A DNA stretch of 64,000 bases from positions 1 to 64,000 of the forward strand of contig PPNB01000010.1 of the NCBI GenBank assembly GCA_003707115.1, read 5' to 3'. The notes beneath the pieces were generated by a model, which was not told where the DNA came from, did no database searches, and worked only from the letters and a program-made list of their open reading frames with translations. The position numbers and the translations under genes were made by a program. The DNA is from Tortispora ganteri. Its lineage: Eukaryota. This document shows, in pieces, positions 1-61,967 of this stretch; within the stretch, counting starts at the first letter, position 1, and each line of letters starts with the position of its first letter.

Positions 1-3000
1 ATGTACGAATTGGTCCGTGTAGGCCACGACAATCTCGTGGGCGAAGTCATCCGTATCGAAGGTGATAAGGCCACCATTCAGGTATACGAGGAAACTGCTG
101 GTCTCACTGTGGGAGATCCCGTGCTTCGCACTGGAAAACCTCTCTCGGTAGAACTCGGTCCCGGTCTTATGGAGAATATCTATGACGGTATCCAGCGTCC
201 TTTGAGAGCCATTCAACAGATTGCCGACTCTATCTACATCCCTAGAGGTATCGACACCCCATCCTTGAGCCGTGAGATCAAGTTTGACTTCACTCCAGGC
301 TCTCTTAAGGTTGGTGATCATATCTCTGGTGGTGATATTTACGGCACAGTCTTCGAGAACTCTTTGGTGTCCAAACACAATATCTTGCTGCCTCCCAGAG
401 CTAGGGGTACTATCACTCACATTGCCGAGGCTGGTAGCTACAACGTTGATGATACTGTTCTCGAAGTGGAATTCAATGGCAAAACCAGCAAGTACTCTCT
501 CATGCACACATGGCCCGTGCGTGTACCTCGCCCGGTCACTGAAAAACTATCTGCTCATCATCCTTTACTCACCGGCCAACGTGTTCTAGATGCCCTCTTT
601 CCCTGTGTCCAAGGTGGTACTACTTGTATCCCTGGAGCTTTCGGCTGCGGCAAAACTGTAATCTCACAGGCTTTATCTAAGTACTCGAACTCCGATATTA
701 TTATCTATGTCGGTTGTTTTGCCGAAGGTACCAAAGTCATCATGGCTGACGGCTCCGACATGCCTATTGAAAATATCCAAATTGGTGACTCGGTCATGGG
801 ATCTGACGGCCTTCCTCGTAAAGTCGTCGATCTACCTCGCGGTGTGGACGACATGTATTTGGTTAGCGAGAAAGATTCTGCTCAGCCTCAAATCTCCTTT
901 ACATGCAATGCTACCCACGATTTGATTCTCAAGACTCCTCAATCTGTCTCAATCTCTACAGATAATGAGCAAACCTCAGTATCGTTCTTGCACCGCGTGA
1001 ACCGTCAAGTAGGATCCATTGAATCTGGAAGCTGCAGAGTCATCGAAATTGTCGAAAGAACTTCTGTTTCGTTTTCTCATACTCAACTTGGTGCAGAAAC
1101 CGCACGCGTTAAAGCGAATCAATTGGCCAATTCCGTCGATGATTCTGATTTACACTGGACTATAGAGGCACGTGACGTAACTCTCATGTCTGAGGAAGTT
1201 CGCAATGCATCGGTACAGTCAATCAGCCCTATTCTACTCGAGAACGAGCGCCTTGCTAGTTATTTGAACTCTAATGGCTTGAATGCCCAATTAGCTCCAC
1301 AAATTGCTTATCTCCTTGGATCTATCATCGGATCTTCTATGCAGTCATCTGCTATTTGCACAAATGATTCTGAACTCGTAGACCAGGCTGAGAAATTTGC
1401 TGAAAAGGCTGGTCTTCATTTGAGGAAATCTGTAAAAGAATCAGGAACTATCATCAACTTTGAATCCAGTCTTATCCCTCTGCAAGGCATGGTTTTCGAT
1501 GTCAAACTTTCCAACTCATCGATGTCTTTCAATGAAGGATTTTTCCACTCTAAGACCAATTCTCAGATTGATTTGGCCAAGATTGCTCGCGAGTTAGGTG
1601 TTAATTCTAAAACGATCCCTACTACTTTCACTCGCGAATCTATGAAAGTCAGAGAGAGTTTGGCTGCTGGCATTGTTGATGCTGCGGGTACTGTCGACTT
1701 TAGCGAATCTGAGATTATCGCGAAAGTTAGCTTAGTTTCTGAGGCTGTTTCGGGATTTGTTAATTTAGCACGCTCACTTGGTATTCGTGCCTCAGTTCCT
1801 CAAGAGAATACTGTAATCATCTCCGGAAAAGAAGCTCTTCAATCAGTTCTAAGCAATTGCGCTATATCTCGCAATAAGACCGATGCTCCTGGATCCTTTA
1901 CACGCCAGGCTCAGGATTTGATATTTGATATCAGCCCCCTCGAACGAGCTAAGTACTTTGGTATTTCTCTGGAAAAGGCTTCTGATCATCAGTTTATGCT
2001 TTCCAACATGACTCTGGTACATAATTGCGGTGAACGTGGCAACGAGATGGCTGAAGTTCTTATGGATTTTCCGGAACTTTCTATTGACATTGATGGACGT
2101 AAGGAGCCCATTATGAAGCGTACTGCTTTGGTCGCCAACACCTCTAATATGCCTGTCGCTGCTCGTGAGGCTTCTATCTATACTGGTATTACACTTTCTG
2201 AGTACTTCCGTGACCAAGGCAAAGATGTTGCTATGATGGCTGATTCGTCATCACGTTGGGCTGAGGCTTTACGTGAAATTTCCGGCCGTTTAGGTGAAAT
2301 GCCTGCTGATCAAGGTTATCCCGCTTACCTTGGAGCTAAGCTAGCATCCTTCTACGAAAGAGCTGGCGCCGCTGTCTGTCTTGGTAATCCATCCCGCCAT
2401 GGTTCAGTAACTGTGGTAGGAGCTGTATCACCTCCTGGTGGTGATTTCTCTGACCCTGTTACCTCAGCAACTCTTGGTATTACTCAAGTGTTCTGGGGTC
2501 TTGACAAGAAGCTCGCACAACGCAAGCATTTCCCCTCAGTCAACACTTCGCTGTCTTATTCGAAATACATGAATTCTCTCTCCAAGTACTACGAAGACAA
2601 TTATCCAGAGTTCCCTGACCTCCGTGACAAAGTGAAGGAGATTATTTCTAATGCCGAGGAACTTGAGCAAGTCGTTCAACTTGTTGGTAAGAGTGCGCTT
2701 TCAGATGGCGATAAAATTACATTAGACGTCAGCTCTTTGATTCAGGAGGATTTTTTGCAGCAGAATGGATATTCCACCTATGATGCTTTCTGCCCTATTT
2801 GGAAGACCAATGCTATGATGAAGAACTTGATCACATACTACGATGAGGCTCAAAAGGCCGTTGCTGCTGGATCTGCATGGAACAAATTAGCTGAGGCTAC
2901 AGCTGATATCAAGCACGCATTATCTTCGCAGAAGTTCTTTGAGCCGAGTTTGGGTGAAGAGGCTCTGAACAAGGAGTTTGGTGCGTTGAACCAGCGTATT

Positions 3001-3030
3001 ACCGATAGTTTTGCTGCAGCAGCTGAATAA
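1..3030 (+). CDS. VMA1: V-type ATPase catalytic subunit A with VMA1 intein; 5' end truncated by window edge
   Basis: Walker [19 protein letters not shown] and [10 protein letters not shown] motifs. The first Met (MYELVRVG) corresponds to an internal Met about 45 aa into other yeast Vma1 proteins. Intein inserted after IIIYVG. Confidence 0.98.
715..2025 (+). mobile_element. VMA1 intein (VDE/PI-SceI-type), 437 aa, homing endonuclease apparently degenerate
   Basis: Starts [13 protein letters not shown] (block A), has block [10 protein letters not shown], ends TLVHN followed by extein Cys. LAGLIDADG-like blocks read [12 protein letters not shown] and [10 protein letters not shown]. Confidence 0.97.
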
Positions 3031-5884: not shown

Positions 5885-6532
5885 ATGATGTTCACAGAGA
5901 GTATAGGGCAGGATGTACCTAAATGTAAGCGTGAAAATACTCAAAGTAGTATGAGGAGCGTCAGCAGTAAACTTGCGAGCGTCAAGCTTGCACCAAAGGT
6001 GGATTGGAGTAAGGTAGAAACGTCTGACGATGGAGTCAAACAGAGTAAACTAAAGAAAGACATGGTAAAGCGATATAAACATATTGGTAAGCTAAGCAAC
6101 AATGCTTTCAATACAATGACTCCAATTAAACAACACAAGAGGGTGAAATCCGAAGACCTGTTACGTGAAAAGTATCAGAAAGAAACGTTGTCAAAACGTA
6201 AGTCATTACCTGAACTCAGACCCGCACCTTTACAGCCAAAACCAGTTAGCAATCAGGTTAAAGATATTCCTGAGAATATTTTGGAAATAGCGCAGACTGT
6301 AAATCTTGAAAACGAATCTACTGATTCCAATATTGGAAGACAGTTCACTGCTGAAGAGGACTTCTTTATACTGGAATGCAAGAAGTGTGGTATTTCGTAC
6401 CGTCAGATGTCTGAGCTTCTAAACAATTCGCGATCCCCATACTCGTTCCAACAGCGATATTTGCGGTACCTGAAGAAATCGCAGTCTGTGTGGGATACAA
6501 TACAAATCTACAGCGATAAAGGCTTGCTGTAA
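5885..6532 (+). CDS. Hypothetical basic protein with C-terminal Myb/SANT-like domain
   Basis: 215-aa ORF; RQFTAEEDFFIL...ISYRQMSELL..RSPYSFQQRYLRYL fits a Myb-like helix-turn-helix. Confidence 0.65.
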   Translation: MMFTESIGQDVPKCKRENTQSSMRSVSSKLASVKLAPKVDWSKVETSDDGVKQSKLKKDMVKRYKHIGKLSNNAFNTMTPIKQHKRVKSEDLLREKYQKETLSKRKSLPELRPAPLQPKPVSNQVKDIPENILEIAQTVNLENESTDSNIGRQFTAEEDFFILECKKCGISYRQMSELLNNSRSPYSFQQRYLRYLKKSQSVWDTIQIYSDKGLL

Positions 6533-17255: not shown

Positions 17256-17393
17256 CGAGTATGACTCGTACTTCTTTTTCCGATAGCCAATGATGATGCG
17301 ATCTAGTTTTCATATTATGATATTTCATGCTCATTCTTGGTTTCGGTTTATACTTCATTTATTATATATCACGAGATGCATTAATATTAATTT

Positions 17394-17996
17394 TCATGTT
17401 TCCAGAGTATCGGGTAGAAACAACAATGCACTAACTGTTCCAGGTCTTTCTGTACCTAATAGCTCGTAATTGTCAATTGCCACTAGTGTAGATGATACTT
17501 CTGTTTGCACGCCTAGATTAGAAAAGAAATCTCTAGTTTTAGGGCCAATAAACCGCGATCTATTGCCTAAACCAATACATAAGATTTCTGGCTTAGGCTC
17601 GACCATTTCGAAGATCTTCAAAGATGAAGGCGGGAATTCAATTATTCCAGTTTTAAGTCCTCTCAAATTAGATTTGCCATTATTATTTAGTTTCCAGCCA
17701 AAAGCCTGTTCACCACCAAAAATCAAGCAAGCTATGTCCATGTCTTTCGTGATCTTTTCGCCGGTAGAGAGCTGGATGGTATCGTTAGAGAATCCAGATA
17801 TCTGTACTTTTGGTCGAGGTAAATCAGACATCACATCGAAATCACTTAAACCATTTTCGCGCTGTTTAGTTACTTTGTCAATGTCTGCCTGTTCAATTGA
17901 TCTATCCTTTGATGCCATCATAGAACTATGAATAAATCGAGGCCGCAAATACATGTTTGGTCGCATATATGCCCGCCTGATACTGGTTCTAATCAT
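17394..17996 (-). CDS. NDUFAF3-like (DUF498/Mth938) complex I assembly factor
   Basis: Presequence; PKPEILCIGLG and STLVAIDNYELLGTERPGTVSALL match the Mth938-like fold. Confidence 0.8.
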   Translation of the reverse strand: MIRTSIRRAYMRPNMYLRPRFIHSSMMASKDRSIEQADIDKVTKQRENGLSDFDVMSDLPRPKVQISGFSNDTIQLSTGEKITKDMDIACLIFGGEQAFGWKLNNNGKSNLRGLKTGIIEFPPSSLKIFEMVEPKPEILCIGLGNRSRFIGPKTRDFFSNLGVQTEVSSTLVAIDNYELLGTERPGTVSALLFLPDTLET

Positions 17997-18131
17997 GGTT
18001 CTTAAGAGCGCAACTAAAATGATAGAAAACTGTAAGATTTAGACGTAAAAGTAGAAATTAACTAATAGGACTAAGGTAAGCGCCGCTAATATATAATTGA
18101 TTATAATATACAACCAGTTAGAGTTAAAAAT

Positions 18132-18139
18132 AAAAAAAA
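18132..18139 (-). terminator. RNA polymerase III poly-T terminator of tRNA-His
   Basis: Run of 8 T on the minus strand 3 nt after the tRNA 3' end. Confidence 0.8.
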
Positions 18140-18142
18140 CGT

Positions 18143-18214
18143 TGCCGTTGCCCAGAATCGAACTGAGGTCTCTTCGGCCACAACGAAGTGTACTGACCAC
18201 TATACTACAACGGC
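18143..18214 (-). tRNA. tRNA-His (GTG), intronless
   Basis: GCCGTTG/CAACGGC acceptor stem, anticodon arm CTTCG-TTGTGGC-CGAAG, T-loop GTTCGATTC, downstream poly-T. Confidence 0.97.
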
Positions 18215-18349
18215 TCGAATTAAAAAAGGTAATTACAAGTATCTGAGGTGAAAGTAGCTAACGAGCATCTCTAATAGATATTTAATACCCACAATGTCAC
18301 AGCTTCTACGCATAATGAACATTCAATTATTACCTATCATGAACAATTA

Positions 18350-20467
18350 TTAAGAGAAATGATCAACAACTGATTTGAAGGCATAACACAATGCCGCCTG
18401 CATTCTTGCATCGCAGGCTATAATTGTTATAGCAACTATTTCCGATGCGCTGAATTGTTCAATAAGAGAAATAGGTTTCTTTGAAGTAAATGAATTAATA
18501 CTTTTCAAGAATGAACGCAAATCATCATGAAGTTTAGCTTGACAAACGTGATATGAATAGTCATCATTTAAAACTCCACATCTTCTTTGACTATAAGACC
18601 AAATAGCATCACTAAAGTCTCTATTGAGTTTTCCAGAGTCTGCTCTGACACTCATATTCGGCTGACTGTGGACACCCATTGGGATGCGCGAATAGAGGTC
18701 ATCATGATCGAACTTGTCGCCAAAAACCGGGTCATCAACCAATTCAGGAGAATGAATAGATCCTGATCCTTGCAATAAACTTTCATCTATCGATTTCGAT
18801 TCAGACAAAAAAGGGGGTTCAGACGGCGAATTCCTGCCAATCTTCAAAGCTTCAGTCATTCTATGATCAAGAGCTCGCCCAATCGATTCAATATAACTCG
18901 ACACCAGACTTTCACCATCTCTTTCCCAGTTATAATCGGTTGACCGCAACAGTTCTGGAGCTTCAGGATCCTTGTCGTAAGATATGTATGGCAATTGATC
19001 TTCTATGTCAATGAACTTTGCGAAAGACGGATCTGTTGGTTTGCAGGTGACTTTACCATCTTCTGTACTTTTAGAGGCATCAGAGAGCGACAATATGCTA
19101 GTACGTCTCAATTTTGGTTCAAAAAACCGACCACTTGATCGACCGAGACTGCATGCAGTAGTCCAGTCGTCTATTGAACCTGCAGTAGAAACGGAGATAT
19201 AGGATGCCGACAAACAAGAGATATCGTCATCGTTCGACTCCAGAGATTTGGATTCTGCAATACTCTTAATATCTATGCTGAAAGAAGGAATTGGTCCTTC
19301 CAGTAGACTTGAGTTTCTGCGTCTCAATGTGTAAGGCGACGTGCCCTGAGCTAGTAGTGATACAGAGTCGTGCGGTATTAGGCTTTGCGATTCAGAAAAT
19401 TCGGAAGAATGTTGCTGTTTAAGAAGATTAGCTACCGAAAGTGGTGAAATTGCAGTGAACTCAGGTATTAGTCCTAGTGTATTTGCCATGGTGGAGCTGC
19501 TATGAAAAGCAGCAAAGATCGAGATCATTTGGATAACTTCAGATATAGACCAGGGACTACTTCCAGGGCTAGTGTTAGAACATAACTCACGTATATGAGA
19601 GGCAGAAAGTACCCATGGTCTGTGAGCCAGCAATTTGTTGATTTTCTTTAGTTTCTGAAGTTTCTGCGGGGCATGGTCTAGGCCATTCAGCCATTTCGGG
19701 TCGCCACCTGCTGAAAGGAAATCGCGTATTGTCTGAGAAAGCATGTATGGGGACCGACACTCTGCAGCAGCCATTATTGCGAGGTAGGTACGGTATGATC
19801 TTGGCAAAGGGCCGTTATGATCGACGACCACGAGATCCCAGCTGCAATTGTTGAATGCCTCCAGATAAGCTGGATGGAAAGCAAGTAACCTGTCGAAATG
19901 CGTGAGACGGTGAAATTTGATAAATATTTCTGTGAATATATCCTCTATAAATGGGGAAGGGGCGGGTATATGGTGGTCAATACAGTAGCCAAGATAGGCC
20001 GATCTGGAGGTCAGGGAATCAGAAGAGACGGTTTTAGGGGCCATGCTTTTCAAAGGCGATTTCTTGATAAACGAATCACAAGGGAAACCTATGCATTTGT
20101 TGATTGGCAGAAACATACTGGGAGCGTAAGAAACGAGTCTAGGGAGTACTATGCCCATATACTCGCAGCGGTTGAGAGTGCAATAGAGCGAAGAGCGTAT
20201 ATCTAAAAATGGAGCATTCACCTCTAGTCTCATGAGGATTATAAGGAGTTGTTCAAGGATATGAGGCAGTGAGTCATTGTATTCTTCCGGTGATCTGTCT
20301 AAATCCAATACAGAGTATCTTTCATTGTCTAGATCACACGAATTCGAAAATGTTTGGATGTAATCTGTGCACATGGTCCCTACGGCCTTATCAACGTTGA
20401 CGAGGGCAGCGGATCTTATGGCCCGATTTGGACTGAACAAGTCGTTTACCAGCAATGGCAGGTCCAT
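18350..20467 (-). CDS. Sestrin (PA26 family) homologue
   Basis: HPAYL..F, GPLP..YR.YLAIMAAA, FL..GGDP.WL.GL..AP.KL..L..INKLLAHRPW, WS.SE, DYNWE..G.SL, AIWSY..G..NDDY.Y, F..SE.V and ARMQAAL.YA all align with metazoan sestrins. Confidence 0.93.
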   Translation of the reverse strand: MDLPLLVNDLFSPNRAIRSAALVNVDKAVGTMCTDYIQTFSNSCDLDNERYSVLDLDRSPEEYNDSLPHILEQLLIILMRLEVNAPFLDIRSSLYCTLNRCEYMGIVLPRLVSYAPSMFLPINKCIGFPCDSFIKKSPLKSMAPKTVSSDSLTSRSAYLGYCIDHHIPAPSPFIEDIFTEIFIKFHRLTHFDRLLAFHPAYLEAFNNCSWDLVVVDHNGPLPRSYRTYLAIMAAAECRSPYMLSQTIRDFLSAGGDPKWLNGLDHAPQKLQKLKKINKLLAHRPWVLSASHIRELCSNTSPGSSPWSISEVIQMISIFAAFHSSSTMANTLGLIPEFTAISPLSVANLLKQQHSSEFSESQSLIPHDSVSLLAQGTSPYTLRRRNSSLLEGPIPSFSIDIKSIAESKSLESNDDDISCLSASYISVSTAGSIDDWTTACSLGRSSGRFFEPKLRRTSILSLSDASKSTEDGKVTCKPTDPSFAKFIDIEDQLPYISYDKDPEAPELLRSTDYNWERDGESLVSSYIESIGRALDHRMTEALKIGRNSPSEPPFLSESKSIDESLLQGSGSIHSPELVDDPVFGDKFDHDDLYSRIPMGVHSQPNMSVRADSGKLNRDFSDAIWSYSQRRCGVLNDDYSYHVCQAKLHDDLRSFLKSINSFTSKKPISLIEQFSASEIVAITIIACDARMQAALCYAFKSVVDHFS

Positions 20468-21433
20468 TTATGCCATTAAATAGAGTAAAACTAATGAAAT
20501 ATTATGTCTCAGATTACTAAAATAGTAAACGAAGAGCAGCTTTCATGAAAAATAAAAGACAGTAAGAATAGAACCTGACCGGCCAATATTGTTTCGATAA
20601 CGTGAAAGGGCAAACTCTAACTGATATAAACTTTTATCAATATTTAGTTCAGGCGAACGAGGTGACCAATTTTGTATACAGCATTGCGATTTATTCACAG
20701 TTGCAGACAAATTTCTTCAAGTAAAATACAGACATTGGATTTGCTAGCGTGATTTTTGTTGTAGTGGCAATGCTAGTTGACAGTCAAGTGATCCAGTATG
20801 CGATTTAGTTGTTAATCGCTGGTTGAATTTTTTAAGATTGCGCGTAAACAATAATAGTCGATCATTGAATGTTCAACAAGACATCAATTTATACCTATAT
20901 CAAATATAGTTTTTATATGCTGCACAAGTAACCAGGAAAGTTAAATGCCAGCGATCCAACTCCAAGGCACGACTAAACTACTCTATTTGGCACCAGAGAT
21001 GATATAGGTAGTGGCAACTGTTAAGGTTTAGAGGAGTGTGTGAATGATCTGAGCCAAATAACACTTTATTGTTTACAGACTGATGTGAAAAGTCTAGTAA
21101 TAGGCTTGTTAAAAGTCAACATCTGATAAATAAAAGTAAATAAATAGAAATAAAGTATATATTGAATTTGCTTCCAAAACAGCAGCAGTAAAAGGGCATA
21201 GGGCGCGCGACCTTGCATCACTGAACCAAATTAACCTTTTCTTCAACTTACTTGAACCCTTTTCTTCTGTTTCTTCGGATAAATATAAACCTTTTGTCTT
21301 CTATTAGGATTTAAGGAAAATATAATTTTGAAGTAGCTTTCTGAATATTAACGCCACTTTTTTTATAATCTCTACGTATATTTGTCAATTGCTTGTTGTC
21401 CTCTTCCGAATTGGCTGAATTTCCTGTATAGCC

Positions 21434-25118: not shown

Positions 25119-26368
25119 CTATTCAGAGTTGATTTCAGCACGCTGTTTCTTTGACTGGCTCCAAGTGACGTCGTTGGATTCCAGTTGCTGTAAGAAATCT
25201 TCCCAAGACTTCTCGGAATCAACTACTCCAGTGTTCAATTCGGCTGCAATATCAACATCTTCGCCTTTGTTTATTCTGTTCTGTTAGTATGAAAAATCAA
25301 GTTGTTTCGCAATTATTGAACTTACCTTGATATGATGTCCTTGAGAACCGATATCTTGTTGTTAAGCACACGAGTGGATTCTTTCAACTGTTCTTTTTGA
25401 CGCAGAACGTTAATTACCTGTGATCCAAAGAGTATTAGTAAAATCATGAAAGTCAACAACGGGTTGCTTTGGCGATTCTCAGACGATGCAGAGAAAGGCC
25501 AAAATGAAGATTGTATTAGCTTACCAGGTGATACGTATCGCAAGTACGGCTTTACTTTGCGTACTGTTCCAAACTTAGCTTCAGCGTCCGCGTCTGAGAC
25601 TGGCACAGGGACAATGACGTCTCCACCTGGAGTCCAATTTACAGGTGTAGCTACACCAGCCTTGTCGGCTAGCTGCAGTGCTTCGAGTGCCCGTAGTACT
25701 TCGGCAGTATTACGTCCAACGGCAGGCGGGTAGGTGATGATTATGCGGACCTTCTTATTAGGGTCAATTATGAAGACGGATCGAAGGGAAACAGGAATAG
25801 GATTGGACTTGATATTCTTAACAGACTCTTCGTCCAACATCCCGTAAAGCCAAGACACTTTACGTTCCTCGTCTGCAATAATCGGATAACCGACCTTTGC
25901 ACCTTCAGAGGAAACCTCCTCAATATCCTTGATCCAGCCCTCATGGTCACCCAGCCCGTTAGCAGAAAGGCCAATGAGTTTAGCACCACGCTTCTCAAAT
26001 TCTGGCTGAAGTTTAGCAAACGCACCGAGTTCAGTAGTGCAGACGGGGGTATAATCTGCAGGATGAGAGAAGAATACCACCCAATCGTTGCCGATGAACT
26101 CGTGGAAGCTAATGGGGCCTTTCGAAGTTTGCGCCTTGAAGTCAGGAGCAGTAGATCCTATTCTAATAGGCTCCTGCTGCTCAAAACGGGCAGACATAGA
26201 CACAGAGAATGCTCTTGAACCACTTGGGCAGGAACATTCGCCGCAATCACCACCGTTCTTGTGCACAATGGGTATTCTACGACGCACTACAACACTGCAG
26301 GAACCGCATCCTCCTCCGGTGCGCAATCCAGCGACAGAACGTCTTACAGCAAATTTGGCAGCTTGCAT
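25119..26368 (-). CDS. Prx1 fused to an Ina22/DUF5321-like membrane module; predicted join 26368-25326 + 25275-25119, 399 aa
   Basis: The Prx1 frame has no stop and continues KLIQSSFW...NPLLTFMILLILFGSQ...KISVLKDIISR; removing a 50-nt intron adds INKGEDVDIAAEL...EKSWEDFLQQLE. Confidence 0.7.
25276..25325 (-). other. Spliceosomal intron (50 nt)
   Basis: AG|GTAAGT donor, TACTAAC at 25289-25283, AACAG acceptor ending 25276; removal restores a 52-codon open exon. Confidence 0.85.
25410..26368 (-). CDS. PRX1: Mitochondrial 1-Cys peroxiredoxin; predicted spliced short isoform join 26368-25525 + 25417-25410, 283 aa
   Basis: FSHPADYTPVCTTE active site, GRNTAEVLR, ATPVNW, KPYLRY end. Family identity is certain; the exact 3' end depends on splicing. 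Confidence 0.85.
25418..25524 (-). other. Candidate retained/alternative intron (107 nt) that also encodes protein
   Basis: GTAAGC donor at 25524, TACTAAT at 25440-25434, first downstream AG is CAG ending 25418; removal yields VSPGN-stop. Confidence 0.6.
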
Positions 26369-40818: not shown

Positions 40819-42216
40819 ATGGACTCTGCAATTACCGCCTATAGATCTTGGGTAACTGAGGCATTAAGTAAATACGTCAAAGAGGATTTAGAAATTCTTA
40901 CAGATTATGCGGTTTCTTTACTGACACGTGATGGTTCACCGGAACAAATTGGGCCTGACACCGTGAACCAACTTCATACCTTCCTGGGCGATCACTCTCA
41001 GATATTCGTCCAAGAGGCTCTGCAAGCCCTAAAGCAGGGATCTTTTCTTAATAATGACTCTAACTTTTCTCCTGATATTGCGATGCCAGAAACAAATAGC
41101 CAATCTCAGCCGTTCAAACGAATAGATCGGAGGTTCTGGGGTCCCGCAGGTATACGTGAACCTGCCTTTGATGGCCAAAAGACACTGGTGTGCGTGAGTG
41201 TACCGCGGGAAGACTTAAACGAAGAAAAGTTTAGGACAATATTTTCGAGTTATGGCGATGTCAAAATTGATGTGAAACAGGACAGTGCCTATTCCGCAGC
41301 ACATGTGGCAGTTGATTTTCCGACACCCGAACTGGCAGCTAAGGCTTTCGCTGATCGTAACAACCTGTTCAACGGGTCTACCATAAAAGTATTCTGGCAG
41401 CGCCCTACATACGACACTGGAATGGTCCCCGTATACAAGTTTGGCAAACTAACGTATGAGGCAGTTCCGGAGAACGGCACGAATCCGAGATTGGAGCGGC
41501 TGATCGAACGCCAACAACAGAAGCAGGAAGAGTTTCTGGCAAAACAGCAGGAGCGCAAACAAGCAGAACAGAATCTTGAAAGCCTGCTTATATCTGCGAA
41601 TGAAATGGTAGCTAAATATCAATCACAAATTGATGCATTGCAGGAGAAGATCAGCATTGTGGAACAGTCTTACGTCGAAGCGACACAAGGCGAAGATTCG
41701 TCTAGTCCGCGCGCACAGCAACTGGCCAATGAGCTGACTAGTCTACGCAGCCAGAGCGACGATTTTCAAGTCTTACTTTCTCAGGCAATGCATTCTAAAA
41801 ATATGATCGAGTCTACAGTCAATAGAGGTCGAGGCGGATATTCTGCTAGAGGCGTACCGAGAGGGCGTGGGCGTGGGCGAGGACGAGGACGAGGAGCGTT
41901 TCGTGGTCATATCGGCAAAGCGCACCGATTCAATCCCTTAGCGGACCCAAAAATTGTACAAAAGTATAGCATTGATAATCGGCCGAAATCAGTCTTTATT
42001 CCGAACGTTGGGGAACATACGGAAAAGCTAGTGGAGTATGCCAATTCGTCATTGAGCGCGCAGTCAGTTGAGCCGATTACTAAAGACGATGGGTCTACAG
42101 GATTTGTTGTACAGTTCGGAGACAGAAGTAATGCAGAGAAGTTTTTTAACGTTGGGGGAAGTACAAGTGACGGAGACTTACCAAGTACTGTAAAAGTGGA
42201 GTGGTACACTAAATGA
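40819..42216 (+). CDS. RBM26/27 (Rmn1)-like RNA-binding protein
   Basis: N-terminal PWI-like domain, RRM ending IKVFW, coiled coil, RGG/RG tract, SIDNRP followed by a second RRM; first ATG at 40819. Confidence 0.7.
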   Translation: MDSAITAYRSWVTEALSKYVKEDLEILTDYAVSLLTRDGSPEQIGPDTVNQLHTFLGDHSQIFVQEALQALKQGSFLNNDSNFSPDIAMPETNSQSQPFKRIDRRFWGPAGIREPAFDGQKTLVCVSVPREDLNEEKFRTIFSSYGDVKIDVKQDSAYSAAHVAVDFPTPELAAKAFADRNNLFNGSTIKVFWQRPTYDTGMVPVYKFGKLTYEAVPENGTNPRLERLIERQQQKQEEFLAKQQERKQAEQNLESLLISANEMVAKYQSQIDALQEKISIVEQSYVEATQGEDSSSPRAQQLANELTSLRSQSDDFQVLLSQAMHSKNMIESTVNRGRGGYSARGVPRGRGRGRGRGRGAFRGHIGKAHRFNPLADPKIVQKYSIDNRPKSVFIPNVGEHTEKLVEYANSSLSAQSVEPITKDDGSTGFVVQFGDRSNAEKFFNVGGSTSDGDLPSTVKVEWYTK

Positions 42217-46034: not shown

Positions 46035-46919
46035 ATGTCTGACGAGATCATTTGGCAGGTGATCAACCAGCAATTCTGTTCTTTTAAAGTAAAGACAAAC
46101 AAGGAACAGAACTTCTGTAGGAACGAGTACAACGTATCAGGATTATGTTCTAGACAGTCATGTCCACTGGCCAACTCAAAGTATGCAACAGTGCGATCTA
46201 TAAAAGGAAGGATTTATTTATTCATAAAGACGCCTGAACGGGCTCACTTACCATCAAAACTTTGGGAGCGGATCAAGCTGTCGAAACAGTATTCAAAGGC
46301 ATTGGAGCAAATCGATAGACACCTTATTTATTGGCCCGATTTCCTTATACATAAATGCAAGCAGCGTATGACTCGCCTGACACAAATAGCTATAGCATCG
46401 CGCCGATTAGCACTGAAGGAAGATGAACAGCGACTTGTCAGCGTAGCGCCCAAAGTACGTCGACGAGAGGCTACACGGGAACGGAAAGCATTAGCTGCAG
46501 CTAAAGTAGAGCGAGCCATCGAGCGGGAGCTACTGGATCGCTTAAAGTCGGGCGCGTATGGAGATAACCCGCTCAATGTTGATGAATCATTATGGAAAAG
46601 AATTATGGATAAGCAATCAGAGAGTGTACGACAAGACGAACTGGAACAAGAAGAACTTGATGATGAGGATGAGGATGAAGAGGAAGAGATAGAATACGTT
46701 ATGGCTGAAGACGATGACGAAGAATTGGCAGATATGAATGATTTAGAAGATTGGCTTGGTTCACAGTCTGAATCTGAGTCAGAAGATGATTCGGACGACG
46801 ATTCAGACGAAGATCAAAACCGTAAACGATCTAATGATTCAGATAACGGACCTCAGCAAAAACGACGACCTCATATTGAAATCGAGTACGAGGTAAATGG
46901 TTCAAAGGAATTAGCATAA
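46035..46919 (+). CDS. MAK16: 60S biogenesis factor Mak16
   Basis: [35 protein letters not shown], acidic tail, IEIEYE. Confidence 0.97.
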
Positions 46920-47043
46920 TATGTTATATAATAGCATGATAACGCACATTATTGTAGTCAATTTTGGCAGATCAGATCTAACTAGCGTATACTCCTCTAC
47001 ATTTACTGCCTGTTCCTATTACTCCTCTCTTCCCTTTTTCCCC

Positions 47044-48630
47044 ATGGACTGGTCCAGCACCGATTCGCCAGTATCAGGCGAACGAAATCGTACACGACGG
47101 TCTAGGCATAGAATTCGGAGATTGCATGTCTTAATAGATGGGAAGAACCAGACAATCGCGAGGAAAGCTGTTGAATCAACAATTGTACTAGGCATATTCA
47201 TCGCGGCACTACTCAAATCGGAGTCTCCTAATCTTCTGCCATATGTGCTCGTGATTGTTGTAGCCTTTATATGTTCAGCAATACTAAACCCTTTAAGAAC
47301 AGAAAATTATTTGACTATTCTATATACCACAACTCTACCGGTTCTGCTGAGTATTGTGTCGGTGAGAGACACGCTGCCTCTGCACGCCATGATCGCTATC
47401 TGCGCTTTACCCTTGCACGATTCTACTAAAGACGCAATAAATGCTGTGATTTTACCGCAAAACCTTTACACGCGTATATACTACCAGAGCTTTGAAACTA
47501 TTTTGTCTGATTCAGCTCAAAACTCCTTAACTGTCGCTGAAGGCCGTCTTTTTGCACAAGCGCTCACTAGCTTGACATTGGCCGCGCGCGCCACTGAACT
47601 CGTTATTCTACGGACGCTTCTAGTTGGCGGTATTTTTGCACTCTGGGGGATTTCTCCAATTGTTAAAAAAATAATGAAACTTTCGGGGACGCCACCACAC
47701 CGACGACCGGTCGGCGCAGACACGCAAAAACTCAAGCTTGCCTTGCAAGCGCTTGCCGTTTTCGCTGTCGAGGTGTTCGCAGGTATAAGGTACGTTCTTG
47801 CACAACAGCTTGGAGTAGACCCTCTATACTACTTGTACTATCTTGTGTTCTACAATTCTGAACCATTTGCGTTTAGAAATGTGCACATATTCATGTCGGT
47901 ATACTGGCTGACGATCTTGATGATAGTAGTGCCGCTAGTAGACTACTTCTCGCCGTCCTGGACAGATATAGATGCGCGCAGAAAAGTGTGGCACTTTACT
48001 GTCGTTGTTATGTTTCTACTTGTTGGCGTCAATTTCGATCCTATGTATATAAGCTTAGCGCTGGCTGGAACGCTATGTATCTTTTTCCTACTGGAGTATA
48101 TCCGGATTACTACTATTCCACCACTCGGTCCGTGGTTGCAGCGGCATATTATGAACTTTGTTGATAAGAGAGACACTTGTGGACCAGTAGTAGTCTCGCA
48201 TATATTCTTATTACTCGGTATCGGGTTTCCTCTATTTTTGGGCTATTCGCCTGTTGGCATTATATGTCTGGGGCTGGGCGACGCGTGTGCGTCTACTTTT
48301 GGCCGCCGGTTTGGCCACCACAAATGGCTCGGTTCCAGTAAAACGCTAGAAGGGTCGCTGGCGTTTGTGGTTGCTTCGTTTTCTGGGTTCTGGATAATGC
48401 AGAATTTTGAGCTGCTGGCGTCACGAATGCCCGGCGACCCTACCGATCAGTTTTCATTACGCTATTGGTTCGATTTAGGTGCTGTTGGATACAAGCAGTA
48501 CCCGCAACTCACAATATTACAGATTCTTATTGTGACAGTCGTGCCGTGTTTACTGGAGGCTGTTTCCGGCATGAACGACAATGTCCTTGTCCCGGTAATG
48601 ATGTTCTCGTTAGAGCGAATTTGTCGATAA
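47044..48630 (+). CDS. SEC59: Dolichol kinase
   Basis: Multi-TM protein; RRKVWH, DKRD.GP..SHIFLL, LGLGDACAS..G, KTLEGS, NDN. Start may be 46921 or 47044. Confidence 0.92.
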   Translation: MDWSSTDSPVSGERNRTRRSRHRIRRLHVLIDGKNQTIARKAVESTIVLGIFIAALLKSESPNLLPYVLVIVVAFICSAILNPLRTENYLTILYTTTLPVLLSIVSVRDTLPLHAMIAICALPLHDSTKDAINAVILPQNLYTRIYYQSFETILSDSAQNSLTVAEGRLFAQALTSLTLAARATELVILRTLLVGGIFALWGISPIVKKIMKLSGTPPHRRPVGADTQKLKLALQALAVFAVEVFAGIRYVLAQQLGVDPLYYLYYLVFYNSEPFAFRNVHIFMSVYWLTILMIVVPLVDYFSPSWTDIDARRKVWHFTVVVMFLLVGVNFDPMYISLALAGTLCIFFLLEYIRITTIPPLGPWLQRHIMNFVDKRDTCGPVVVSHIFLLLGIGFPLFLGYSPVGIICLGLGDACASTFGRRFGHHKWLGSSKTLEGSLAFVVASFSGFWIMQNFELLASRMPGDPTDQFSLRYWFDLGAVGYKQYPQLTILQILIVTVVPCLLEAVSGMNDNVLVPVMMFSLERICR

Positions 48631-61355: not shown

Positions 61356-61967
61356 CTACTTGGCAGTTTCCTCATCCTCAGCAGGAGTGGCTTCTTCGTC
61401 AGCAGCATCACCATCTGTGCCTCCAAGGTTGGCAGCAAGATCACCGAGATCATTAGCTCCTAAACCTTCAAGGCCAGCACCTCCAGCTAATTTACTGAAA
61501 TCCATTCCATCAAGACCGCCCATATCTGGCATACCGCCTGCCATTTGTGAGAAATCCATGCCTCCAAGGCCACCCATGGGGTCAAAATCGCTCTCAGGAA
61601 CTTCATTCTGTTCGTCCTGATCAACCCAACGGTCAAAATCGGTCTTGATAAAATGGTACTTGGCCTTCTCCTTGGTCAGTCTAGGCCAATAGTCTTCCTG
61701 AGCTTTTTTCTTCCTTAATATGAAGGTGAGCCCCCGTCCAGTGGCAGCCTTCTTAGATTCATCAACGTCGATTTCGTCAAAGAAATCGATTTTTACACTA
61801 TATTTCTTGCCCTCAGCAGTGTCAGATTCAATAGCTAGTGCAGTAGAAGACAAATCCACTTTAGGATCTTTCGAATCAGGAATAATAACAGTCAAGAAGA
61901 CAACGTTCTTGGAAGCATCATCTGCGCTGGACCTTTGCGCCCATTGAACTTCAGGTGTAATAGACAT
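61356..61967 (-). CDS. SBA1: Hsp90 co-chaperone p23
   Basis: PEVQWAQR, YWPRLTK, IKTDFDRWVD, Gly/Met-rich tail. Confidence 0.96.
   Translation of the reverse strand: MSITPEVQWAQRSSADDASKNVVFLTVIIPDSKDPKVDLSSTALAIESDTAEGKKYSVKIDFFDEIDVDESKKAATGRGLTFILRKKKAQEDYWPRLTKEKAKYHFIKTDFDRWVDQDEQNEVPESDFDPMGGLGGMDFSQMAGGMPDMGGLDGMDFSKLAGGAGLEGLGANDLGDLAANLGGTDGDAADEEATPAEDEETAK

Follow-up and report, generated by a model that had tools for sequence, protein, structure and literature searches.

The yeast Tortispora ganteri carries an intact sestrin gene whose sequence bears the mark of constraint. The reading that we favour, and hold to be reasonably probable, is that this gene was most likely inherited vertically, with most other yeasts losing it, and that its product putatively docks onto SEACAT and restrains TORC1 without being released by leucine. 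To our knowledge, sestrins are usually treated in reviews and textbooks as missing from yeasts.

A budding-yeast sestrin with two domains

The gene occupies positions 18350..20467 on the minus strand of the 64,000-nt stretch that was analyzed (the window), where the list of open reading frames and their translations gives 705 amino acids plus a stop codon, read from ATG to TAA over 2118 nt of unbroken frame. The product matches the Pfam PA26 profile (PF04636) in two stretches with 237 bits and an E-value of 5.4e-70, against a curated cut-off of 29.4 bits, and chains of human Sestrin2 in the PDB match it at E 7e-42. Its AlphaFold model (pTM 0.76, with pLDDT of at least 90 in 380 of the 705 residues) consists of two all-helical AhpD-like domains, SESN-A and SESN-C, with a linker, the same two domains as in human Sestrin2 (5DJ4, leucine-bound; 9LVJ and 9LWF, GATOR2-bound). 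In a Foldseek comparison with this model, human Sestrin2 took all of ranks 1-15, with TM by target of 0.74-0.85; the chains 9lvj and 9lwf, in complex with GATOR2, are among these matches, and bacterial AhpD-like proteins came next. The latter, peroxidases of the AhpD/carboxymuconolactone-decarboxylase type, match single halves of the model (3c1l and 6k40; TM by target 0.70-0.76), whereas the yeast protein is a fused double domain with a sestrin-specific acidic hinge and lacks a catalytic cysteine where Sestrin2 has Cys125. Judged by sequence and model, the product is a true two-domain sestrin; an earlier sequence-only reading, which had described an intact 705-aa ORF with both sestrin domains and named the PA26 profile as the check, was right on this point. 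The host can be assigned to the budding-yeast order Trigonopsidales, since the Prp8 encoded in the window has as its best match that of Tortispora caseinolytica, at 96% identity, with Lipomyces next at 71%; taxonomy places Tortispora in the Saccharomycotina, order Trigonopsidales.

Alignments and the model delimit the parts of the protein. An N-terminal helical region (aa 1-135; 20063..20467, minus strand; pLDDT mostly 75-97) carries the conserved blocks L-R-L-x-x-x-x-P-F-x-D-[IV]-R and P-S-x-F-[IL]-P; as a fungal-only marker this region was rejected, the same blocks being present in long sestrins of animals and protists. The whole region before SESN-A, 175 aa, is confidently folded and longer than in human Sestrin2. 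SESN-A (aa 176-341; 19445..19942, minus strand) was placed by HMMER alignment to 5dj4_A, the motif table and a pLDDT of 91-98. It contains H198 and Y241, the counterparts of human H86 and Y127, and the sequence LAHRPW at aa 280-285 (19613-19630), the same as in the human protein. Two blocks had been singled out in the sequence-only reading for their likeness to metazoan sestrins: in the alignment to 5dj4_A, INKLLAHRPW is identical at 10/10 positions and ARMQAAL-x-YA at all but the x. Further along SESN-A, W-S-I-S-E-V (aa 306-311) corresponds to the WSLAEL motif with Ser190, and W306-S307 (19547-19552) align with human W189-S190. SESN-A is followed by a disordered linker (aa 342-477; 19037..19444, minus strand; pLDDT below 50) that is rich in Ser and Thr (29% S+T) and holds both R-[RK]-x-[ST] sites of the whole protein, at aa 383 and 454.

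The first part of SESN-C (aa 478-555; 18803..19036, minus strand), delimited from the 5dj4_A alignment and the contact residues given in the accessible text of PMC12507694, carries R508, E515, L521, V522, Y525 and D534, which correspond to human R338, E345, L351, I352, L355 and D364. The site of the leucine-pocket lid is occupied by a lineage-specific disordered insert (aa 556-611; 18635..18802, minus strand; pLDDT below 50), a 36-aa block of which has no counterpart in the 8 fungal sestrins aligned. The second part of SESN-C (aa 612-705; 18353..18634, minus strand; alignments, motif table, pLDDT 78-98) contains F672 (human F447), E676 (human E451; 18440-18442), the A-R-M-Q-A-A-L helix and an electronegative hinge, D-D-Y-S-Y (aa 635-639), in the place of DDYDY, which the available text of a 2024 review calls the defining sestrin feature (PMC11429811). 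Within N-D-D-Y-S-Y, D635-D636 (18560-18565) align with human D406/D407, so that the conservation of this pair and of S190, both asserted in the sequence-only reading, holds. Identity to human Sestrin2 is about 22% over the structural alignment, and the features kept include LAHRPW, W-S, D-D, E451, F447, H86, E345, D364, L351, I195 and R338. Differences from the human protein comprise the disordered linker of about 136 aa, the extra 56-aa insert, the replacement of Cys125 and Arg390 by Ser, His132 by Thr, Arg404 by Leu and Tyr349 by Glu, and the absence of Trp444 and of TYNT.

Constraint on the gene and its surroundings

An independent 6796-nt contig of the same species (runs X1/X2) spans the sestrin ORF without a gap; the two differ at 6 sites, each of them a third codon position and each synonymous. 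With 476 synonymous and 1639 non-synonymous sites in the ORF, the chance of 6/6 synonymous differences is about 1e-4, and the gene is thus under purifying selection. Contigs of runs X3 and X5, from other organisms in the same studies, covered just the tRNA-His gene of the locus. This tRNA-His (GTG) gene, also on the minus strand (18143-18214), sits 135 bp beyond the sestrin stop codon. On the other side, an intergenic region (20468..21433) is common to the sestrin gene and a malic-enzyme gene arranged head to head. This region contains zero copies of the Gcn4-type consensus TGASTCA and zero of the STRE-type consensus CCCCT, and so offers no regulatory hint; the window as a whole has 7 copies of the former against 10.6 expected and 39 of the latter against 58 expected. 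A single TGASTCA, at 20270, falls within the sestrin ORF. No SEACAT gene is found among the genes within the 64-kb window.

The putative docking face of the yeast sestrin

In a 2025 cryo-EM structure, as described in the accessible text of the report, 14 named residues of Sestrin2 contact WDR24, SEH1L and MIOS (PMC12507694). By an alignment that covers the sestrin side of the contact, 6 of these are identical in the yeast sestrin, 5 conservatively replaced and 3 changed. Across the docking face, I195, R338, E345, L351, D364, D406 and D407 are identical to human, and L191I, I352V, L355Y, L472F and L479F are conservative swaps; Y349E, Q340T and D104N are changes, as is R404L. Thus one of the two arginines that repel GATOR2, R338, is kept, and the other, R404, is Leu. 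As far as the alignment goes, the W-S and D-D motifs of this face are retained, as are most of the contact residues.

The redox site no longer matches the AhpD-type relay of Cys125 and Tyr127/His132 with its C-x-Y-L motif: Cys125 is replaced by Ser239 and His132 by Thr246, and Tyr241 alone is kept. A cysteine is present in the Cys125 column in 41 of the 49 other rows of the motif table.

The SEA/GATOR complex is described as conserved throughout eukaryotes in the available text of a 2025 survey (PMC11836306), and the N-terminal propeller of S. cerevisiae Sea2 as free, flexible and essential in that of a second source (PMC12999518). We propose that the acidic face of SESN-C would dock onto Sea2, the yeast orthologue of WDR24, at that protein's N-terminal propeller, and onto Seh1 within SEACAT, and that this docking would restrain TORC1 in some stress or starvation condition. 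Unlike in mammals, leucine would probably not be the trigger for release, and the protein would have no peroxidase activity of the Cys125 type. Control may rest on the abundance of the sestrin or on phosphorylation of its Ser/Thr-rich linker.

A reading that we consider unlikely, though not lightly set aside, is that the protein is a neo- or sub-functionalised relic with a job outside SEACAT and TORC1, for example with another partner or in redox chemistry through another cysteine such as C237, two residues ahead of the lost catalytic position. Such a change of role would fit the long branch described below, the loss of Cys125, His132, Arg390, Trp444 and the TYNT lid, the two large lineage-specific disordered inserts and the lack of an annotated orthologue from the congener T. 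caseinolytica in the collection searched; purifying selection, for its part, implies that some function was kept, not which. However, the surface elements that are best kept are those that dock GATOR2 (the D-D hinge, W-S, E345, D364 and L351), and several Ascomycota relatives, with D-G or E-D at this site, keep the D-D pair less well. In the available text of the 2024 review, moreover, these docking motifs are the most conserved ones in non-metazoan sestrins (PMC11429811). A narrower version of docking is, in our opinion, a tentative option and somewhat doubtful: a minimal sestrin of ancestral type, leucine-blind and without the redox cysteine, that kept the SEACAT-docking face alone and is putatively governed by its abundance or by phosphorylation of its Ser/Thr-rich disordered inserts, where both of its basophilic R-R-x-S/T sites lie. 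If so, a sestrin would still be available in this budding-yeast lineage to bind the free and essential Sea2 N-terminal propeller.

Probable vertical inheritance of the sestrin gene

Whether the gene was retained or acquired by transfer had been left undecided in the sequence-only reading; the tree, the profiles and codon usage favour retention, and the topology tests and signature columns are indecisive. In a careful maximum-likelihood tree (IQ-TREE; 44 rows x 565 columns), the Tortispora sestrin joins a 10-row clade with support 97/98, whose four named members (Saitoella, Protomyces, Orbilia and Discina) are all Ascomycota, outside the separate clade formed by the 15 non-fungal rows (100/98). 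Profile scores were 313 bits for other fungi, 293 for Ascomycota, 271 for other eukaryotes and 239 for metazoan-like sestrins, the fungal profiles outscoring the metazoan-like one by 54-74 bits. The PA26/sestrin proteins of Saitoella complicata, Protomyces lactucae-debilis, Orbilia/Arthrobotrys ('Sestrin-1') and Discina gigas share with the Tortispora protein an I-G-F block after P-S-x-F-[IL]-P and an extended lid loop, and W-E-R, D-D-Y-S-Y and the Arg390-to-Ser change are common with Orbilia. These relatives are nevertheless just 22-24% identical to it, and their hosts are filamentous or Taphrinomycotina fungi, not budding yeasts; the C-Q-Y cysteine is present in 8 of the 10 rows in the clade, and the two rows of Protomyces type have Ser.

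Horizontal transfer from outside the fungi, out of an animal or a protist, is improbable in our estimate, but several observations would accommodate it. Grouping of the sestrin with the 7 rows of metazoan-like type was not rejected by AU tests (delta lnL 12.07, p 0.181), and neither was grouping with the full set of 15 non-fungal rows (delta lnL 11.57, p 0.183); retention is therefore favoured, not proven. The end branch of the Tortispora sestrin is long, at 2.55 changes per column where the median is 0.72, which makes its placement in the tree shaky and means that its function may have drifted. Signature residues are split, 15 being common with the metazoan-like consensus (H198, R283 and S307 among them) against 14 with the Ascomycota; the His at the human H86 position is absent from 34/34 other fungal rows, with Phe, Thr or Leu in all 10 rows of the Ascomycota clade. 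The A-R-M-Q-A-A-L block is the same as in vertebrate Sestrin2, and the top single-sequence matches include a tunicate as well as fungi. Many of the 'metazoan' states, however, also occur in other non-fungal eukaryotes and are therefore ancestral, and a best identity to any protein of 36% speaks against a recent donor. The gene also has native codon usage, with an RSCU r of 0.72 where the window median is 0.575, and a native GC3 (0.396, against 0.407 +/- 0.034 for the window). The neighbouring tRNA gene, put forward as a hint of transfer, gives no evidence of it: repeats flanking the sestrin gene are just short pairs at chance level, the best being an inverted repeat of 25 nt with 80% complementarity, between 18316-18340 and 20851-20875, and no mobile-element signature lies beside the gene. 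Sequence evidence taken together, vertical inheritance in an early-branching budding-yeast lineage, with loss by most other yeasts, is the most likely history.

Loss of the leucine pocket

The sequence-only reading had implied a leucine-sensor role, which the pocket makes doubtful. Arg390 holds the carboxylate of leucine in Sestrin2. In the yeast protein it is replaced by S619 (18611-18613), the position of Trp444 falls in a deletion, and the human T-Y-N-T lid gives way to G-R-N-S followed by the 56-aa disordered insert; Glu451 and His86 are kept. A mammal-like sensor, in which leucine bound in the SESN-C pocket frees the sestrin from SEACAT, could draw on pocket residues that are kept or conservatively swapped (E676 for E451, F672 for F447, H198 for H86 and the hydrophobic F618 for L389). 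The loss of Arg390, Trp444 and the lid nonetheless makes it very unlikely, as does the Leu in place of Arg404, the residue that repels GATOR2 once leucine is bound (accessible text of PMC12507694), and according to the available text of the 2024 review the motifs for leucine sensing are a metazoan innovation (PMC11429811). Leucine sensing by the Tortispora sestrin is thus unlikely on sequence grounds. That the gene is decaying or non-functional, for which its long branch might speak, or that the ORF arose by chance, is scarcely credible given the unbroken frame over 2118 nt, domains predicted to fold at high confidence, the 6 to 0 ratio of synonymous to non-synonymous differences with no indels in the independent contig, and the Pfam E-value of 5.4e-70.

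Distribution and implications

Among about 15 billion proteins, no relative of the Tortispora sestrin exceeds 36% identity. The annotated proteome of T. caseinolytica was among those searched, yet gave no match above this value, so the gene is either dispensable or unannotated there. Exact look-up of the sestrin and 5 neighbouring proteins in the protein collection found 0/6 present; word-index searches (7999 candidates scored each) were dominated by vertebrate sestrins and brought up no named fungus, a metagenome scan gave 573 pattern matches of which 0 were confirmed as relatives, and the ESM Atlas returned just generic PA26 clusters from chordates and oomycetes. By its sequence, the Tortispora gene is a new and very divergent sestrin of a known family.

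Yarrowia belongs to a different order, the Dipodascales. The available text of the 2025 survey gives sestrins as absent from Saccharomycotina (PMC11836306), and that of the 2024 review names in passing a sestrin of Yarrowia lipolytica, likewise a member of the Saccharomycotina (PMC11429811). The Tortispora protein lacks the CSYL cysteine. The sestrin noticed in this yeast is real, but its novelty is smaller than had been assumed. Because an intact, constrained sestrin is now seen in a second budding-yeast order, loss in the subphylum would have been patchy and not a single early event. That the docking face is kept while the leucine pocket and redox cysteine are lost supports the view that GATOR2/SEACAT binding is ancestral and leucine sensing a later animal addition. 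The value of the finding is limited by the fact that Tortispora is not a genetic model and that the role is predicted from sequence and model. Even so, the Sea2 N-terminal propeller, which in the accessible text on that structure has no known yeast partner (PMC12999518), gains a candidate ligand in the Tortispora sestrin. Should the gene be truly missing from T. caseinolytica, Tortispora would provide a natural presence/absence pair for sestrin input to yeast TORC1.

A sestrin gene in Tortispora ganteri

The sequence-only reading had placed a Sestrin in a budding yeast, and both halves of that claim hold. An uninterrupted ATG-to-TAA ORF of 705 aa (window 18350-20467, minus strand) matches the Pfam PA26/sestrin family (PF04636) at E 5.4e-70, its score being 237 bits where the cut-off is 29.4, and five distinct human Sestrin2 PDB sequences match it at E 7e-42 to 1e-41. 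An AlphaFold2 model built from a 60-row alignment has a pTM of 0.76, with pLDDT of at least 90 in 380 of the 705 residues and two disordered stretches, aa 342-477 and aa 556-611. When the model was compared with the PDB using Foldseek, ranks 1-15 were all human Sestrin2 (E 2e-15 to 9e-12; TM by target 0.74-0.85), the GATOR2-bound chains 9lwf_X and 9lvj_U among them; bacterial AhpD-like proteins came next, but these match single halves of the model. These data demonstrate the sestrin family and fold of the protein.

The host is a congener of Tortispora caseinolytica and so belongs to Saccharomycotina, order Trigonopsidales: the window's Prp8 shares 96% identity with the Prp8 of T. caseinolytica NRRL Y-17796, followed by Lipomyces at 71%. 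The window is gene-dense with long unspliced ORFs, and its ordinary housekeeping genes include VMA1, Prp9, Prp8, Cox4-type, Crh-type GH16, malic enzyme, Mic60 and Mre11. None of six window proteins tried has a letter-for-letter copy in the protein collection, and ORFs 5885-6532, 40819-42216, 46921-48630 and 61356-61967 (203-569 aa) have no Pfam match at an E-value of 1e-5 or below. The third of these (+, 569 aa) begins one base after the stop of a Mak16-type ORF (46035-46919, +), an unusually tight spacing. The V-ATPase catalytic subunit (VMA1-type) ORF (1-3030, +), which runs off the window start, is split in frame by an intein (Hom_end_hint, E 7e-70; homing-endonuclease domain, E 3e-15). A 348-aa ORF (25322-26368, minus) combines a 1-Cys peroxiredoxin (AhpC-TSA and 1-cysPrx_C) with a C-terminal partial DUF5321 (profile 36-90 of 160), and could be either a fused gene or two genes read as one.

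Selection on the sestrin ORF

Two sequencing runs of the same species, X1 and X2, yield a 6796-nt contig that spans window 17300-20768 without gaps; because its organism code, size and depth are the same in both, the runs were treated as a single comparison. All six differences within the sestrin ORF are third-position and synonymous, among 476 synonymous and 1639 non-synonymous sites, and by our own arithmetic from these site counts the neutral chance of this outcome is about 1e-4. At the sequence level, this demonstrates constraint on the ORF. In contrast, the only difference in the adjoining DUF498 gene (17394-17996, minus), at 17968, is non-synonymous (Tyr10 to Cys, Y10C). The promoter stretch 20739-20864 occurs in X1 and X2 as a pair of alternative short contigs, one of 125 nt (depth 43.7) and one of 126 nt (depth 52.7), which differ by five substitutions and a 1-nt deletion. 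The pattern resembles heterozygosity or a repeat that has collapsed, and the stretch runs into one arm of a weak inverted repeat of 25 nt that brackets the gene (18316-18340 / 20851-20875).

Docking motifs and sensing residues

Functional sites were mapped by hand from a HMMER alignment to chain 5dj4_A, which is numbered as human SESN2, and cross-checked on a 50-row alignment in which the vertebrate rows carry the expected human residues. The conserved motifs named in the sequence-only reading are all present: the INKLLAHRPW block, including LAHRPW, is the same at 10 of 10 positions, human W189-S190 corresponds to W306-S307, and D406/D407 to D635-D636, encoded at 18560-18565. Human H86 (H198), Y127 (Y241), F447 (F672) and E451 (E676) are also kept. 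In contrast, the redox site is lost (Cys125 is Ser239 and His132 is Thr246, with a Cys two residues before Ser239). In the leucine pocket, Arg390 is replaced by Ser619 and Trp444 falls in a deletion, and the T-Y-N-T lid reads G-R-N-S, followed by a 56-aa disordered insert. Within the 10-row Ascomycota clade, Arg390 is also replaced in both Pezizomycotina lineages (Ser in Orbilia, Lys in Discina) and by Lys in row P0226; the remaining six rows retain Arg.

A 2025 cryo-EM study of GATOR2-Sestrin2 names 14 contact residues and the repelling arginines R338 and R404 (PMC12507694). Six of these contacts are identical here (I195, E345, L351, D364, D406 and D407), five are conservatively replaced (L191I, I352V, L355Y, L472F and L479F) and three are changed (Q340T, Y349E and D104N, the last mapped from the 5dj4_A HMMER alignment alone); of the two arginines, R338 is retained and R404 is replaced by Leu. 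The docking motifs are thus retained, and leucine-pocket and redox residues lost; judged by residue identity, the docking face is largely preserved, whereas a human-type leucine pocket and peroxidase centre are not. This pattern fits a 2024 review, which concludes that among non-metazoan sestrins the motifs for GATOR2 binding are conserved best, and that those for leucine sensing originated in animals (PMC11429811).

Retention or transfer

When 1.84 billion representatives were scanned exhaustively with HMMER (E up to 0.001), 889 proteins were returned, the best at only 171.5 bits and 36% identity; nine of the first ten have names, one a tunicate and eight fungi (Glomeromycota, Zoopagomycota, Blastocladiomycota, Mortierellomycota and the ascomycete Saitoella). 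In a FastTree tree of 142 rows (the query, 150 representatives and three vertebrate anchors, less 12 rows below 400 aa), the protein falls in a 34-row fungal clade (support 99) and an 11-row subclade (97); the four named among the subclade's other ten rows, Saitoella, Protomyces, Orbilia/Arthrobotrys and Discina, are all Ascomycota. With IQ-TREE (LG+C20+F+G4 PMSF, 565 columns) on 44 rows picked from that tree, namely the query, 28 fungal-side and 15 non-fungal rows, it joins the ten Ascomycota-clade rows (UFboot 97 / SH-aLRT 98), and the non-fungal rows form a closed clade (100/98). Against this placement, its end branch is 2.55 versus a median of 0.72, signature columns divide 14 to 15, and AU tests did not reject grouping it with seven metazoan-like rows (delta lnL 12.07, p 0.181) or with the full set of 15 non-fungal rows (delta lnL 11.57, p 0.183). 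Weighed against these points, the clade-profile scores (other fungi 313, Ascomycota 293, other eukaryotes 271, metazoan-like 239 bits), local features common to the protein and the Ascomycota rows, and native codon usage lead us to favour retention with patchy loss, for which phylogeny alone is no proof. A tRNA-His does lie 135 bp past the stop codon, as had been noted, but we count it as no evidence for horizontal transfer, and no flanking repeats beyond chance were found around the gene.

His198 (19874-19876), at the human H86 position, is His in animals and protists and absent from all 34 other fungal rows examined, which mostly have Phe. Because R283 and S307 show similar 'ancestral' states, the protein seems at some sites to be closer to the ancestral state than other Ascomycota sestrins are, its long branch notwithstanding. 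The collection includes the annotated T. caseinolytica proteome, since its Prp8 was found there; two protein searches found no annotated T. caseinolytica protein closer than 36%, reflecting either recent loss or a gene missed by annotation.

A possible role in TORC1 control

The SEA/GATOR complex is reported to be conserved across eukaryotes (PMC11836306), and the Sea2 N-terminal propeller to be free and essential in S. cerevisiae (PMC12999518). The Tortispora protein would dock through its acidic SESN-C face and W-S helix onto this propeller of Sea2 (WDR24) with Seh1, and because of this docking would block the SEACAT function required for TORC1 activity, by analogy with Sestrin2 on GATOR2 (PMC12507694). 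Leucine-triggered release is unlikely. Control might instead come from abundance or from phosphorylation of the Ser/Thr-rich linker, where both R-[RK]-x-[ST] sites, a kinase consensus, are located; this is a lead only.

The novelty claimed for a yeast sestrin survives in part. According to the 2024 review, S. cerevisiae is without sestrins, and Yarrowia lipolytica has them, with DDYDY-, WSLAEL- and CSYL-like motifs and no accession given; its supplement holds conservation tables only (PMC11429811). Within the literature covered, which lies outside subscription journals, we found no description of a sestrin in Tortispora or Trigonopsidales. The RNA-seq table of one cited paper includes a Sestrin with an EGX-series accession, a series we take to be that of an Orbilia-type ascomycete. 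The gene is best filed as real and somewhat unexpected, a new and highly divergent sestrin-family member from a second order of budding yeasts, with a function that we infer.
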